A stretch of DNA of 64,000 nucleotides from NCBI GenBank assembly GCA_016184225.1, contig JACPDA010000004.1, positions 672,316 through 736,315 of the forward strand. Direction: 5' to 3'. Each line of letters opens with the position of its first letter. Positions within the stretch are counted from its first letter, which is position 1. A program made the translations under genes and the position numbers. The DNA comes from Candidatus Daviesbacteria bacterium (GTDB lineage: Bacteria; Patescibacteriota; Microgenomatia; Daviesbacterales; UBA10151). Under the pieces are notes generated by a model that saw only the letters and a list, made by a program, of their open reading frames with translations, ran no database searches and had not been told where the DNA came from. This document shows positions 18,702-62,657 of the stretch, piece after piece.

Positions 18702-20138
18702 TTACTTCAAATCTTCCGGGCCGCCGATCATGTAGAAAGCCTGTTCCGGCTTGGAATCATGCTTACCTTCCAATATTTCCTTAAACATCCTGACAGTATC
18801 TTTGATTGGTACATATTTACCTTTTCTACCGGTGAATGCCTCACCAACGAAAAATGGCTGGGTTAGCGCTCTTTGGATTTTCCTGGCCCTGGCTACTGTT
18901 AGCTTATCATCATCAGAGAGTTCTTCTATTCCCAAAATGGCAATAATATCTTGGAGATCTTTATATCTTTGCAGCACTTTTTGCACACCTACCGCCACAT
19001 CGTAGTGTTCTTGTCCCACAATGGCCGGATCCAGGGCCCTGGATGAAGAGGCCAGGGGATCAACAGCCGGGTACAGGCCCTGTTCTGTCAAAGCCCGCTC
19101 TAAGGCAATGGTGGAATCCAAATGGGCAAAAGTGGTAGCTGGTGCTGGATCAGTATAATCATCCGCCGGCACATAAACTGCCTGGACGCTAGTGATAGAA
19201 CCTTTTTTCGTGGAAGTAATCCGCTCCTGCAAGGCTCCCATTTCCGTAGCCAAGGTTGGCTGATAACCGACGGCAGAAGGGATCCGACCGAGCAGCGCTG
19301 ATACCTCAGACCCGGCTTGGGAAAACCTAAAGATATTATCAATAAAAAGCAGGACGTCTTTACCGGCCTCGTCCCGGAAATATTCTGCCATGGTGAGCCC
19401 TGTCAAACCCACCCGCAGTCTGGCCCCCGGTGGTTCATTCATTTGTCCAAATACCATGGCTGTTTTATTAATCACCCCGGAGGAAATCATTTCATGATAT
19501 AGGTCATTTCCTTCTCTGGTCCGCTCACCAACCCCGGCAAAAACCGAATAACCGCCATGTTCGGCGGCAATATTCCTAATCAGTTCCTGTATTATGACTG
19601 TTTTCCCGACTCCTGCACCGCCAAAAAGGCCGACTTTTCCACCTTTGACAAACGGGGCAATTAAATCTATAACTTTAATTCCTGTTTCAAAAACCTGGGA
19701 CTCTGTCGACTGTTCGGCAAATAAAGGAGCTGAGCGGTGGATTGGAAGCGATTTCTTTGACTTTAAAGCACCTTTTTGATCGATCGGCTCACCCAAAACA
19801 TTAAACAGCCGACCCAAAACTTCTTCACCCACCGGTACGGAAATTGGGGCTCCTGTATCCGAAACATCAGTACCCCTTCGCAACCCATCTGTAGCCCCCA
19901 TAGCTACGGCCCGGACAACTCCTTCACCCAAGTGCTGTTGGGTTTCCAGGACAAGTGCTGAGTGTTGAGTGCTAAGTGAGGAGTCTTTCTGACTTTGCAC
20001 TTTTCCCTCTTGTCCCGAGCGAAGTCGAGGGATTGCACTTTCCACTATTAATGCATTATAAATAGTAGGTAGCTTTTTTTGGTCAAACTCCACATCTACT
20101 ACTGCACCAATGATTTGTACTACTTTACCTTTGTTCAT
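18702..20138 (-). CDS. atpD: F1 ATP synthase beta subunit with N-terminal ~25-aa in-frame insertion
   Basis: Walker A GGAGVGKT and DELSEED-like region. An extra segment ([27 protein letters not shown], nt about 19949-20030) falls where canonical AtpD has about 5 residues. Confidence 0.9.
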
Positions 20139-20142
20139 AGTT

Positions 20143-60170: not shown

Positions 60171-62657
60171 AGTCACAAAATCTTTAAACTGATTACCTCT
60201 ATCTTCATAATCCTTAAATAAATTAAAGCTGGTTGAAGCAGGGGAGAGGAGAACTATTTTGCCTGGAGTAGTATGTTTAAATGCAATTTCTACTGCATCC
60301 TGCATGCTGTCAGTATCGAATTTCCGAATTTTCAATTTTAAATTTTTAATTTTCAAACTCACAGCTTTCCAGATTTTTGTACCAGTATCCGGAAACAGAA
60401 TTAGGTTTTTTATCTTTGACTTGGCAATTGCCTTACCCAAAATAGAATAATCTATACCTCTGTCATACCCACCGGCAATTAAAGTTTCAACATTTCTTCC
60501 CAGGGCAGCCAGTGCCTCAACTGTAGATTGTGGAATGGTCGACAGCGAATCATTATAGAATCTGATTCCGGAAATTTCAGCCACAAATTCCAGCCGATGA
60601 GGAAGGGGCTTGAAATTGATGATTGCCTCTTCAATTTTCTCATCCGGAATTTTAAATAATCTTCCTATAATAATGGCTGGCACAATATTTAGGAGATTAA
60701 ATTCTCCCAAAAGAGGGATCGTATCTTTGTGTACTACATCCGAAACCATCTGTTTATCTTTCTTGGAAAAGGCAATTTTTTTGGCATGACTTTGTTCCGC
60801 AATATATTTAAACTCCGCAATATCTTGATTATAGATTAGATAATCCTGACTTGTTTGGAACTTGGTGATATTATTTTTTGCCCTGACATAAAGAGGGAAA
60901 TCTCCGTGACGATCTAAATGTTCCGGATAGATATTGGTCATCACGCCTATATGAGGACTTTTATCCAGATCTTCCAGCTGAAAAGAGGAAAGTTCATAAA
61001 CCACTACCGAATTTTCGTTTAAATTGTCTAATAAATCCAGAGCAGGTTTGCCGATATTACCTACCAAATGTGCATCCATTCCGCCCTTTTTTAACACTTC
61101 ATATATTAACGAGGCAGTGGTACTCTTGCCCTTGGTGCCGGTTATTCCAATAATTTTCCCTTTAAAGTTATTGAAAAAAAATTGAGTAGCTGATGTAATA
61201 ACTTTTCCTTGTTTCTTTGCTTCTTTTATTTCCGGAAGATAGGGGATACCCGGAGATTTTATTATTACATCATAATCCTTTAACTTTTCTAAATAATTTT
61301 CTCCATCACTTTGATCTGCAATGCCAATTTTCCTATTGGGGTAGTGTTTTTTAAAATAATCCAGAGTAGCTCTTCCTTCTCTGCCAAATCCTAGAATCAA
61401 AGTTTTCTGATCCTCAAAACTCTGTAAGAGCTTAGGAATTTCCTGACCATCTGTCTTTACCCTTTTAATACTTAAAGAAATTGCAGTTTTTATCTCATCA
61501 ACAGTTGCCACGCACTCAAATGGCTTAACCTCGCCGTTTTCACGGAGCAAGCCGCGAACTACAGGTATCAGATTTTCATCTTCCAATAAATTTTTGCCGA
61601 AAATTTTTTCAGTTTTGCTTCCCAGAAAAGGGTAGAGTAAAAGATAGGTAGATACGCATTTTGGACATTTACCACACCATATGCCTTTTTTAAAACCCTT
61701 GTTACAACTTCTAAACAGTTTGTGATACTTGTCCATCTTAGAAAAAATCTCGGCTATTTGAAGTTCACCCAAGTTCCTTAAGAAGCTAAAATAATTTGTA
61801 ATGGTAGATAAATACTTTTTGGAATAATCCCTAAAATCATGTTCAAATTCAGTAGTTTTGGAGTACTGATGGTTTATTTCCTGACCCAGCCATTTCAGAT
61901 TACTTTCATTAGAACTGGCTTCATTGGAAACAACCAGATTTTTATAGTCATATAAGACTCCGACCAGAGTAGAAAGGAATGCCAAATAAGCAGAAAAGGG
62001 GGTATGGCCATTCAAATATCCTTGCCCATTAAGCTCCAGAAGCTTTGGGTCTATTGTTCTTCTAATAATTATCGGATTTTTACATCCGCCAACTTCTGCA
62101 ATTTTTATTGCCGCATCAGTTGGGTTTAAGATTAGGCAGTTAAACTCTCCTCCCTTCTTACTAATAGACTCCAGTGTCACGGCGGAATCCTTTCCTCCGC
62201 CAACTAAAACCAAATCCCGATCCTGTAAATGCCCAGCATATTTAGCTTGCAACCTTTCAGGTTGACGCACAAATTTAACCAGATCCTTTTGGGTAAAATC
62301 AATCTGGTTCTTATAAAAAAATTCCCCCAGGCCTTTGATTAGGAGATTCTGCCAAAAAGCAATTTGCTCCTCATTTAAGAAACCGGCTTTGATAATAATT
62401 TGCGGGGAACAGGTTGCTTTCCAGTAACTTAGCAGCTCAACCATCCCTAAATTAAATACCAAATTCTGCAATGCTTCCGGGCCAATTTCATCCAGTCTTG
62501 CCTTTGAAACATTCAACAAAATAACTTCCGGGTTAAATTTAATATCAGGATCAAGAAGAAAATCAAAAGCTATTTTTAAATTTCCCTGCTCAAGCACTGT
62601 CTGGTAGCCTTTATAAATAAACTGACTATGTCTTTTCCTGAGTGTATTAAAATTCAT
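60150..62657 (-). CDS. murD: fusion ORF: N-terminal ~400-aa PP-loop ATP-pyrophosphatase-like domain with Cys cluster, plus C-terminal UDP-N-acetylmuramoylalanine--D-glutamate ligase (MurD)
   Basis: C-terminal half has the MurD pattern (ILGFGREGRATLDYF...GTKGKSTTASLI...). N-terminal half has a PP-loop-like LVGGGKDSAVTL and a CGKCPKC zinc-ribbon-like cluster. No in-frame stop or ATG separates the halves. It also contains the REP GCAACCTTTCAGGTTGAC at 62236-62265. Confidence 0.6.
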   Translation of the reverse strand: MNFNTLRKRHSQFIYKGYQTVLEQGNLKIAFDFLLDPDIKFNPEVILLNVSKARLDEIGPEALQNLVFNLGMVELLSYWKATCSPQIIIKAGFLNEEQIAFWQNLLIKGLGEFFYKNQIDFTQKDLVKFVRQPERLQAKYAGHLQDRDLVLVGGGKDSAVTLESISKKGGEFNCLILNPTDAAIKIAEVGGCKNPIIIRRTIDPKLLELNGQGYLNGHTPFSAYLAFLSTLVGVLYDYKNLVVSNEASSNESNLKWLGQEINHQYSKTTEFEHDFRDYSKKYLSTITNYFSFLRNLGELQIAEIFSKMDKYHKLFRSCNKGFKKGIWCGKCPKCVSTYLLLYPFLGSKTEKIFGKNLLEDENLIPVVRGLLRENGEVKPFECVATVDEIKTAISLSIKRVKTDGQEIPKLLQSFEDQKTLILGFGREGRATLDYFKKHYPNRKIGIADQSDGENYLEKLKDYDVIIKSPGIPYLPEIKEAKKQGKVITSATQFFFNNFKGKIIGITGTKGKSTTASLIYEVLKKGGMDAHLVGNIGKPALDLLDNLNENSVVVYELSSFQLEDLDKSPHIGVMTNIYPEHLDRHGDFPLYVRAKNNITKFQTSQDYLIYNQDIAEFKYIAEQSHAKKIAFSKKDKQMVSDVVHKDTIPLLGEFNLLNIVPAIIIGRLFKIPDEKIEEAIINFKPLPHRLEFVAEISGIRFYNDSLSTIPQSTVEALAALGRNVETLIAGGYDRGIDYSILGKAIAKSKIKNLILFPDTGTKIWKAVSLKIKNLKLKIRKFDTDSMQDAVEIAFKHTTPGKIVLLSPASTSFNLFKDYEDRGNQFKDFVTSFKPAD
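62236..62265. repeat. REP-like hairpin (TAGCTTGCAACCTTTCAGGTTGAC) inside the murD fusion ORF
   Basis: Same hairpin as in the REP cluster at 18320-18355 (TTTAGCTTGCAACCTTTCAGGTTGC). Confidence 0.7.

Follow-up and report, generated by a model that had tools for sequence, protein, structure and literature searches.

The window analysed here, a 64,000-nt stretch of the chromosome of a groundwater bacterium, Candidatus Daviesbacteria (Microgenomates, within the candidate phyla radiation, CPR), is about 91% coding as judged from its open reading frames (ORFs). It carries pheT, genes for ATP synthase subunits, tyrS, recG, rpsP, trmD, a type IV pilus-like cluster, a holB-like gene, gyrB, murC and a murL-murD fusion, along with a GT2 coding sequence and four genes resembling those for REP-associated tyrosine transposases (RAYTs; REP, repetitive extragenic palindromic sequence). 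Small hairpin repeats lie between these genes and also, in frame, inside them. Our reading, which we hold with a probability of about 0.75, is that the chromosome has been colonised by several families of very small hairpin elements that are tolerated in frame in essential genes. An earlier note on this DNA had proposed that REP-like elements sit in frame inside housekeeping genes. Ortholog alignments and identity between copies bear out that core claim, and the observation is largely confirmed: two of the proposed cases are not insertions, the size of one (trmD) was overestimated, and a pilin case stands apart.

The gene names in that note agreed with Pfam; what it called a murD fusion joins MurL to MurD, and gyrB lies between holB and murC. 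MurC, AtpA, AtpD, TyrRS, TrmD, AtpG and S16 of the window are recorded in NCBI as Daviesbacteria proteins, and for the six genes that we looked up (atpA, atpD, atpG, tyrS, trmD and rpsP) the NCBI annotation gives intact proteins of the same lengths. NCBI starts atpG at the downstream MANTREL methionine; an exact-protein look-up of atpG read from the TTG start gave no match. The 90% clusters of these six proteins have one member each, atpG excepted, whose cluster partner lies on a contig of a different species (L112) with about 80% DNA identity. The closest relatives of atpG in the genome collection are Daviesbacteria metagenome-assembled genomes (MAGs), at 87% identity or less. About 70 related loci were compared in all and are labelled L001, L002 and so on. 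These comparisons drew on about 58 Daviesbacteria atp loci, 22 metagenome loci around rnc and seven loci around murC, with a further set of 37 MurC relatives and PDB chains.

Self-comparison of the window revealed four kinds of element: REP-like hairpins of 20-45 nt, some of them identical to the flanks of RAYT-like genes; hairpins of 60-85 nt whose arms are built of runs of 7-nt units; elements of 60-110 nt whose termini are GTCAT...ATGAC inverted repeats, including a double hairpin of about 70 nt found in atpG and in the rpsP tail; and a 17-nt palindrome, CCCCGATTAAATCGGGG. Within these kinds, the R2 REP (TTCCGATCCCGGATCGGAA plus a tail, its DNA reading TTCCGATCCCGGATCGGAATAG... and having a terminal GGAATAG) occurs downstream of pheT, on both flanks of RAYT-like gene 2 and in tyrS. 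The D2 family (GTGTCTACCTA-CCCACCCCTGGGGTG-...TTAGCTTCACAC) occurs at 14521 and 39240, beside RAYT-like genes 3 and 1, and in the GT2 linker. Family G is made up of a TTAGCTT lead and then a variable hairpin. Its G1 form (TTCCCAC...GTGGGAA, often followed by CGTAG) is found in pheT, atpG, holB and murC and between genes at 25581 and 25931, and its G2 form (GCAACCT...AGGTTGC CGCAC) at 18332 and in murL-murD, with other G variants at 18383 and 47281. The G1 copies of murC and pheT, and many of those in relatives, end ...GGGAACGTAG; CGTAA and CACAG are found at the ends of other copies. On its own, TTAGCTT shows no enrichment in the window (19 observed vs 16 expected), and it is informative only together with the hairpin. 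Hairpins with heptamer arms include H1 (GAGTCAA/TTGACTC; between genes at 21046, 23609 and 56528, and in recG), H2 (CAGTCGT...; between genes at 51109 and 53003, in atpA, and as half-copies in recG and rpsP) and H3 (GGTTACA/TGTAACC; in trmD). Terminal inverted repeats read GTCATTGCGAG...CTCGCAATGAC (11 nt) in L002, L009 and L026 and GTCATTCTGG...CCAGAATGAC in L008, the window copy having one mismatch.

By our list, 19 elements (1062 nt) lie inside 14 genes and 19 (1004 nt) between genes, so that these tiny repeats total about 2 kb of the window, about half of it intragenic. The intragenic set includes copies that the earlier note had missed: in pheT, atpG (two), the rpsP tail (38903-38975), the GT2 linker, gyrB and a second site in murC (59996-60031). 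Perfectly paired hairpins whose stems reach at least 7 bp are only modestly enriched overall (51 in the window vs 23-42 in shuffles), and most intragenic sites have DNA-hairpin z-scores of -2 to -5.9; those of tyrS (-1.35) and atpD (-1.48) are weak, and the GT2 heptamer array does not fold. An Rfam scan of the window found one tRNA and nothing else. Coordinates are collected in Table 1.

Table 1. Repeat elements, RAYT-like genes and related features. Coordinates refer to the window unless a related locus is named; z is the DNA-hairpin z-score.
Feature	Position	Strand	Remarks
G1 REP-like hairpin TAGCTTCCCAC...GTGGGAACGTAG, in frame in pheT	575..625	+	z -5.5
17-nt palindrome, pheT	593-609		
17-nt palindrome, atpA of L028	L028 9020-9036		
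17-nt palindrome, murC of L108	L108 6204-6220		
Intergenic R2 REP (RAYT2-type hairpin + tail)	1317..1363	+	downstream of pheT
D2-family REP, in frame in linker between two GT2 domains	13562..13602	-	peptide GVNLVHLEGGIGLH; z -4.6
Perfect heptamer array (ACCTGTA) x 4.6 in GT2	14400..14431	-	
Intergenic D2-family REP	14521..14561	+	
RAYT-like gene 1	17505-18191 (cassette 17412..18408)	+	upstream hairpin 17412-17452
atpD in-frame insert	19949..20036	-	aa 35-59, N-terminal barrel; heptamers AGTGCTG + CCCTCGACTTCGCTCGGG hairpin
atpG double-hairpin element GTCATTCTGG...CCAGGATGAC	20406..20475	-	z -3.7
G1 hairpin, in frame in atpG	20716..20739	-	peptide MASHIGSGN
Intergenic H1 hairpin, heptamer arms GAGTCAA / TTGACTC	21046..21115	.	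between atpA and atpG
atpA in-frame insert, H2 hairpin, arms CAGTCGT x 4 ...	22076..22159	-	aa 192-219
Intergenic H1 hairpin	23609..23690	.	
RAYT-like gene 2	24822-25493 (cassette 24759..25545)	+	inverted R2 REPs 24759-24805, 25510-25545
Two intergenic G1-type hairpins	25581-25607, 25931-25958 (span 25581..25958)	+	
tyrS in-frame R2 REP insert, 45 nt	28754..28798	+	
H2-type heptamer segment, variable linker of recG wedge domain	35291..35327	+	common to L085
recG in-frame H1 hairpin insert, 72 nt	35944..36015	+	peptide SLESRVKSQGKKQSRLSTLATSH
H2-type heptamer segment, C-terminal tail of rpsP (S16)	38757..38793	+	
Double-hairpin element GTCATTCTGG...CATGAC, in frame in rpsP C-terminal tail	38903..38975	+	
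Intergenic D2-family REP	39240..39280	+	upstream of trmD
trmD in-frame H3 hairpin, arms GGTTACA / TGTAACC	39510..39577	+	variable loop; z -4.3
RAYT-like gene 3	40078-40746 (cassette 40002..40786)	+	direct hairpin repeats, 38-43 nt, 88% identical
TTTAGCTT-hairpin pair, predicted prepilin leader or 5' region, gene 46709-47347 (minus)	47281..47340	+	z -5.9
RAYT-like gene 4	49509-50159 (cassette 49446..50203)	+	identical 30-nt hairpin repeats both sides
Intergenic H2 hairpin	51109..51191	.	
Intergenic H2 hairpin	53003..53083	.	
G1 hairpin, in frame in holB-like gene	55937..55990	+	nested 21-nt hairpin 55951-55971 in loop; z -4.7
H1 hairpin over last codons and stop codon of holB	56528..56602	.	
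gyrB in-frame insert, ~37-42 aa, heptamer repeats	58351..58476	+	
G1 hairpin in frame in murC, then GTAG	58945..58977	+	peptide LASHIGSGN
36-nt hairpin, perfectly paired stems, in frame in murC	59996..60031	+	peptide VVPKFRNSEKMVP; z -6.5
G2 hairpin inside murL-murD	62241..62271	+	read antisense as VRQPERLQAK

The nucleotide likeness between intragenic elements and other copies in the window, which had been put forward from inspection, is significant, with E values down to 1e-10. The tyrS insert (28761-28795) matches the 3' flank of RAYT-like gene 2 (25510-25544) at 33 of 35 nt (E = 2e-10), and the hairpin in murL-murD matches an intergenic copy at 18332-18362 at 30 of 31 nt (E = 1e-10). Other pairs are murC 58950-58973 with atpG 20716-20739 (24/24 nt), recG 35990-36017 with intergenic 56572-56599 (26/28), atpA 22129-22154 with intergenic 53050-53075 (24/26) and trmD 39553-39572 with GT2 14406-14425 (20/20). 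The double-hairpin element of atpG is 84-89% identical to the rpsP copy. Matches of this kind bear directly on the suggestion that the extra segments grew locally, as loops lengthened by replication slippage or template switching, their likeness to intergenic repeats coming from compositional bias and heptamer slippage. That idea draws on the dominance of arrays with a period of 7 or 14 nt, inside genes and between them (24 of 40 Tandem Repeats Finder rows), on the GT2 array, which is in register with orthologs and homogenised in each genome, and on the natural variability of the loops that hold the inserts. However, local slippage cannot produce matches as good as 24/24, 30/31 and 33/35 nt at loci far apart, different genomes contain identical families in different genes, and the 17-nt palindrome has a 4-nt flanking duplication in three copies. 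Local growth is already largely refuted for the REP-type and GTCAT...ATGAC families, and overall we consider it very unlikely; as pure slippage, it is rejected. Examples of period-7 or period-14 tandem repeats elsewhere in the window lie at 858-887, 29462-29492, 43100-43130, 48353-48383 and 60327-60356.

Alignment with orthologs showed that many of the intragenic elements are lineage-specific gains. In atpA, the element takes the place of the K-D codons of an empty site (AATCAA AAAGAT GTG, read as ...NQ-KD-VICIYVA) that is retained in 45 of 55 Daviesbacteria. The other 10 carry unrelated inserts at exactly the same point, and residues 195-219 of the window protein are missing from all PDB alpha subunits. 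The 25-residue segment of atpD, which the earlier note had left unexplained, is likewise lineage-specific, a 23-25-residue insert made of heptamers and a hairpin, with other elements at the same place in relatives. With atpG, where nearly all genomes have a GTCAT...ATGAC element with a genome-specific interior in the variable region, all three large F1 subunits are hit. The 45-nt insert of tyrS is missing from every close relative. The proposed recG insertion also held up: the closest relative, L085 (82% identity), lacks this H1 copy, the more distant L089 (68%) has a near-identical one, and L082, L083 and others have other elements at the site. The net gain relative to Thermotoga RecG is only about 8 residues, because Daviesbacteria otherwise lack the segment found there in canonical RecG. 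The trmD hairpin is an insertion as well, though not of the 22 residues first estimated: the net gain is about 10 residues relative to relatives and 13 relative to Staphylococcus TrmD (PDB 3ky7), and the hairpins of relatives are built of different heptamer units. The site of the gyrB insert is empty in three relatives and differently filled in four, the double hairpin of rpsP is a lineage-specific element in a variable acidic C-terminal tail, and the REP in the GT2 linker is shared with L002 only.

The claims for murC and holB stood in part. The murC G1 copy is an inserted element that adds six codons (18 nt) relative to the empty site of L106 and L107. Many relatives, though not every one, have this copy, others carrying much larger elements there, and so it is not specific to the window genome. 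The 36-nt hairpin further along murC is present in 6 of 38 relatives. In holB, the G1 hairpin (ASHI..GSGN) occurs in six of the seven orthologs compared, L105 having a G2 variant; what is specific to the window is the 21-nt hairpin nested in it, at whose position L108 carries a nested insert of another sequence, 45 nt long. The left arm of an H1 hairpin (56528-56550) supplies the holB stop codon together with the seven codons before it (KSQESSD*), an ending also found in L111.

Two proposed insertions were discarded. The G2 copy in murL-murD causes no change of length relative to orthologs. The GT2 segment reported at 14399-14431 is a heptamer array that aligns with orthologs without gaps and in register and forms no hairpin. 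The array has equal length in all orthologs (L001, L003, L005, L007 and L014 positions), and its 7-nt unit is internally homogenised and differs per genome (AGGTTAC, AAGTTAC, AAACTAC, GAACTAT), which looks like concerted evolution without length change. The pilin element lies within a predicted leader, MRELQSTSKVKKVQLHLRGVKLNSG followed by FTLVE, of a gene whose start codon is uncertain.

In all genomes examined, the inserts had lengths that were multiples of three and were stop-free, and the host frames were all intact, which argues that the inserts are read through rather than removed. The family-G copies of murC and holB had been said to share a reading frame; this extends to all four intragenic G1 copies (pheT, atpG, holB and murC), each read as L/M-ASH...GSGN. 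The earlier note had also predicted that the inserted peptides sit in surface loops. Alignments with PDB chains and one AlphaFold model, that of MurC (mean predicted local distance difference test score, pLDDT, 82.9), place the inserts in variable loops, linkers or termini, which is evidence from sequence alignment and a single model and not from structures of these proteins. In the MurC model, the insert at 244-251 is coil with pLDDT < 50 and the block at 411-420 is an edge strand followed by coil, with a mean pLDDT of 54.

A further alternative is that the inserts are removed after transcription or translation, as mini-introns or in the manner of inteins, or that they are artefacts of metagenome assembly at palindromes. 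Palindromes are able to confuse assemblers, a tract of the window is 100% identical to another MAG, and CPR bacteria are known to carry insertions in their rRNA genes. However, RNA removal would not need inserts that are everywhere stop-free and a multiple of three in length; the inserts (18-126 nt) have no intron or intein features, and Rfam gave no match to them. Against misassembly, an insert-bearing gene recurs in independent assemblies (two independent Logan assemblies contain the same murC region), and dozens of MAGs produced by different studies have similar inserts. We reject inteins, introns and assembly artefacts on these grounds, and regard this family of explanations as scarcely credible.

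Across relatives, we catalogued 113 lineage-specific inserts in 14 genes. Those of at least 21 nt (n = 92) had a median hairpin z of -1.9, vs 0.0 in 276 length-matched coding controls, and z was below -2 in 49% of them vs 8% of controls (Mann-Whitney p = 1e-14). With plain subfamily indels in tyrS set aside, the proportion below -2 rose to 59% (p = 3e-18). Clustering showed families common to different genes, for example atpD and atpG; atpA and GT2; recG, murC and atpG; and holB and atpA. The atpA element of the window was seen again in gyrB of L110 and the double hairpin of atpG and rpsP in gyrB of L111, three genomes (L009, L041 and L042) each have one element common to atpD and atpG, and G1 and G2 copies were found in many Daviesbacteria loci. 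We then compared 92 element-bearing hot-spot segments pairwise, scoring a pair as sharing sequence when 16 nt or more matched with an identity of 87% or above. Of the pairs that differed in both site and genome, 66 of 3382 shared sequence, as did only 47 of 714 pairs from the same site, 93% of same-site pairs having no detectable similarity. Sites are therefore reused and their contents turn over.

This turnover matters for a rival view in which the hairpins are selected nucleic acid structures, acting in mRNA pausing or stability or as DNA cruciforms, with the peptide a by-product, and are not selfish mobile DNA. In its favour, the architecture is kept at some sites while both arms change (the GTCAT...ATGAC element of atpG, G1 vs G2 in murC and holB, the trmD heptamers), G1 copies are near-identical at synonymous positions even between species in which their flanks are about 75% identical, and intergenic copies lie at gene ends in a terminator-like manner. 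However, close relatives have empty sites in atpA, tyrS, recG and gyrB with no substitute structure, the same sequences recur in unrelated genes and between genes, and the 93% dissimilarity at shared sites fits turnover better than conservation. We consider selection for the hairpins themselves quite unlikely.

The 17-nt palindrome, CCCCGATT(A/C)AATCGGGG, occurs in three genes in three genomes, and each copy is flanked by a 4-nt duplication that differs from copy to copy (TCAA in pheT, CAAA, GTAG); by our arithmetic, the chance of three such matches is about 6e-8. Judging from the flanks, this looks like a target-site duplication, and the palindrome may be among the smallest elements that make one. 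Since 17 + 4 = 21 nt, or seven codons, it would then be frame-neutral by construction. Alignments revealed no clear flanking duplication at atpA, tyrS, recG or the 27-nt elements.

Two nested insertions fall exactly in the loops of G1 hairpins, the 17-nt palindrome in pheT and the 21-nt hairpin in holB. In addition, the window, L108 and L109 have G1 in both murC and holB, and L105 has G2 in both with length unchanged. Such patterns could mean that surface loops of essential proteins hold fixed docking sites at which hairpin cassettes are exchanged in a site-directed way, in frame or with length preserved. This idea follows from the presence of different elements at the same codon position in relatives, the replacement of G1 by G2 at equal length in murC and holB of L105, the nested insertions exactly in hairpin loops together with the 17 + 4 = 21 nt element, and the apparent concerted evolution of the GT2 array. 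One possible mechanism is excision by a Y1 transposase and re-insertion into hairpin loops or beside a conserved TTAGCTT/GTAG motif; cassette and heptamer-unit sequences may then be homogenised within each genome, and exposed peptide loops continually rewritten. When we asked whether elements at different sites are homogenised within a genome, the result was not significant (4/89 vs 66/3382 sharing pairs, p = 0.10). We keep cassette exchange at docking sites as a tentative and unlikely account.

The four RAYT-like proteins are candidates for moving some of these elements. RAYT-like proteins 2 to 4 are 49-52% identical to RAYT1, and H89-x-H91 (the HUH motif) and Y149 (motif SRYIHLNP) are invariant in 4/4. 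Three of the four score 30.7-41.9 bits against Pfam Y1_Tnp (cutoff 23). All four match a single NCBIfam model, the equivalog NF047646, REP_Tyr_transpos (E = 1e-12 to 1e-15), and no other. A search of PDB with the RAYT2 sequence returned no match. From these protein comparisons, the four are best described as distant relatives of RAYTs, not certified RAYTs. Each gene is flanked by hairpins of its own, and related copies are dispersed in the window. The R2 hairpins of RAYT2 have extra copies downstream of pheT and in tyrS, the flanks of RAYT3 (40002-40049 and 40749-40786) are akin to D2 copies at 14521, 39240 and 13562, and downstream of RAYT1 lies a cluster of TTTAGCTT-hairpins (18296-18408) that includes the G2 copy. 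The 30-mer flanking RAYT4 has no additional copy within the window. RAYT2 is syntenic in L083 at 82% identity and is absent from L112 and L001. A link to RAYT-like genes was seen for the REP-type families and not for heptamer-armed hairpins or GTCAT...ATGAC elements; a transposase matching the latter was not identified in the window, where no DDE transposase was seen.

A tract of 1.65 kb (23950-25605), which takes in RAYT2, its REPs and most of atpB, has about 100% identity to L002 3803-5460 (MAG CAZKCV01). Its flanks are only 75-85% identical in that MAG, and the G1 hairpin at 25581-25607 marks the end of the tract, which reflects either recent recombination or transfer, or a co-assembly chimera.

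Taken together, these results fit a process in which copies of each element land both between genes and inside genes. In essential genes, the survivors would be frame-keeping, stop-free copies in permissive loops, linkers and termini, translated as short hydrophilic loop extensions and presumably nearly neutral. For the REP-type families, we infer that movement is brought about by RAYT-like enzymes acting on single-stranded hairpins, a step that is plausible but unproven. Several points weigh against colonisation by mobile hairpins as we have described it. Translation of the inserts is something that we infer from intact frames. The hot spots could stem from targeting rather than selection. 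All four RAYT-like proteins score 47.6-55.8 bits with NF047646, under its curated cutoff of 80, and the RAYT link consists of sequence identity in one clear case (tyrS) and of proximity for G2 and D2. A flanking duplication, as seen at the 17-nt palindrome, is not a product of IS200/IS605-type Y1 enzymes. Same-length replacement, in murL-murD and between G1 and G2 in L105, is unexplained by simple insertion and selection. Finally, the DNA folding of the heptamer-armed hairpins is moderate, with z about -2.

Some neighbouring features of the window deserve mention. The fusion at 60150-62657 (minus strand) has 835 residues and joins MurL, with its N-terminal and epimerase domains, to a MurD-like ligase; L107, L109 and L110 have a separate glutamate racemase and MurD instead. 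An ORF of 903 residues at 4762-7473 contains a 300-nt internal direct repeat (5446-5745 vs 6184-6483, 80% identical) and additional repeats of 24-26 nt, and probably encodes a repeat-domain protein; no orthologs were found among the fetched loci. Two large ORFs at 29939-34381 (645 and 839 residues) are rich in Pro, Ala and Gly, with local GC up to 48%, and one of them bears a 188-residue antisense ORF. Neither has full-length orthologs in the related loci, the 839-residue ORF having a weak partial match in L089 only. The type IV pilus-like cluster at 41000-55850 encodes PilB and PilT ATPases, PilC and at least five prepilin-like proteins. The prepilin-like genes share a 59-nt N-terminal coding repeat (48789, 49192 and 51644), and RAYT4 is inserted amid the pilin genes.

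CPR genomes are only about 1 Mb in size and have almost no spare DNA. About half of the roughly 2 kb of repeat DNA in the window nevertheless sits in genes such as those for ATP synthase alpha, beta and gamma, GyrB, RecG, TyrRS, TrmD and MurC. If the inserts are translated, then mobile hairpins would be the source of much of the variation in length, and of many CPR-specific insertions, seen among the conserved proteins of this lineage. Alignment columns made of repeat DNA are not homologous, which matters for phylogenomics; translation would also have a bearing on annotation and structure prediction. The inserts would further provide a natural map of insertion-tolerant sites in essential enzymes and a compact system in which to study how elements of 17-45 nt move, and would extend the REP/RAYT and Rickettsia phenomena to a deep-branching lineage.

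The earlier note had likened the elements to Rickettsia palindromic elements (RPEs), as selfish palindromic DNA co-occurring here with RAYT genes. The comparison fits the lineage specificity, recurrence and hairpins that we found and the four RAYT-like genes, and the selfish-DNA reading of the intragenic elements is supported. RPEs are described as in-frame palindromes in protein genes (Ogata et al. 2000, 2002, as summarised in PMC10969869), with a size of about 100-150 bp, a CGTC tag and no dedicated transposase (PMC3733652). The likeness lies in the in-frame occurrence of palindromes in many unrelated housekeeping genes, their translation, which is presumed here, and supposed compatibility with the fold, the reduced host genome and the coexistence of several families. 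The elements here are set apart by size and tag: they are 17-126 nt long, not 100-150 bp, and lack the CGTC tag, some being GTAG-tagged and RAYT-linked and many having arms with a 7-nt period. The host also differs, being a member of the CPR that is free-living or episymbiotic.

Di Nocera et al. (2013, PMC3733652) described REPs that are GTAG-tagged and linked to RAYTs, with copies within ORFs, many of which lie in genes for replication and repair, and with REP ends that supply stop codons. Because intragenic REPs in RAYT-bearing bacteria are thus published, their co-occurrence with RAYTs is not new in itself. As in REPtrons and REPINs (PMC3733652; Bertels and Rainey 2011, PMC3116915), HUH/Tyr genes of the window are flanked by their own hairpins, copies of which are dispersed. 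Some G1 copies, though not all copies, end ...GGGAACGTAG, and a REP terminus provides the stop codon of holB. Unlike those systems, two of the four genes here have direct rather than inverted flanking repeats, and intragenic copies make up about half of those in the window, whereas most REPs lie outside genes. The phyla surveyed in PMC3733652 do not include the CPR, and the proteins here fall under the curated RAYT cutoff.

The Coxiella elements QMITE1 and QMITE2, miniature inverted-repeat transposable elements of 150-400 bp, overlap ORFs (PMC5896051). They resemble the window elements in being non-autonomous, with terminal inverted repeats and variable short direct repeats, and in that some copies overlap or extend ORFs. 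Here, the GTCAT...ATGAC elements measure only 60-110 nt, and the smallest unit has 17 nt, to which a 4-nt duplication is added. Cyanobacteria, too, carry heptamer repeats (STRR) and small dispersed repeats (SDR), which were reportedly described by Elhai and colleagues in 2008 and are mentioned in PMC5861425 and PMC3116915. Tandem 7-nt repeats and tiny (21-27 nt), seemingly mobile palindromes that nest would be common to both; the phylum and the sequences are different. In the limited collection of literature searched, we found no report of RAYTs, palindromic elements or the characteristic peptides in CPR bacteria or Patescibacteria. The phenomenon itself is known, from Rickettsia and some Proteobacteria; what is new here is its occurrence in a CPR lineage and at unusual density, with elements that are unusually small and diverse, have arms with a 7-nt period and lie inside genes in about half of cases.

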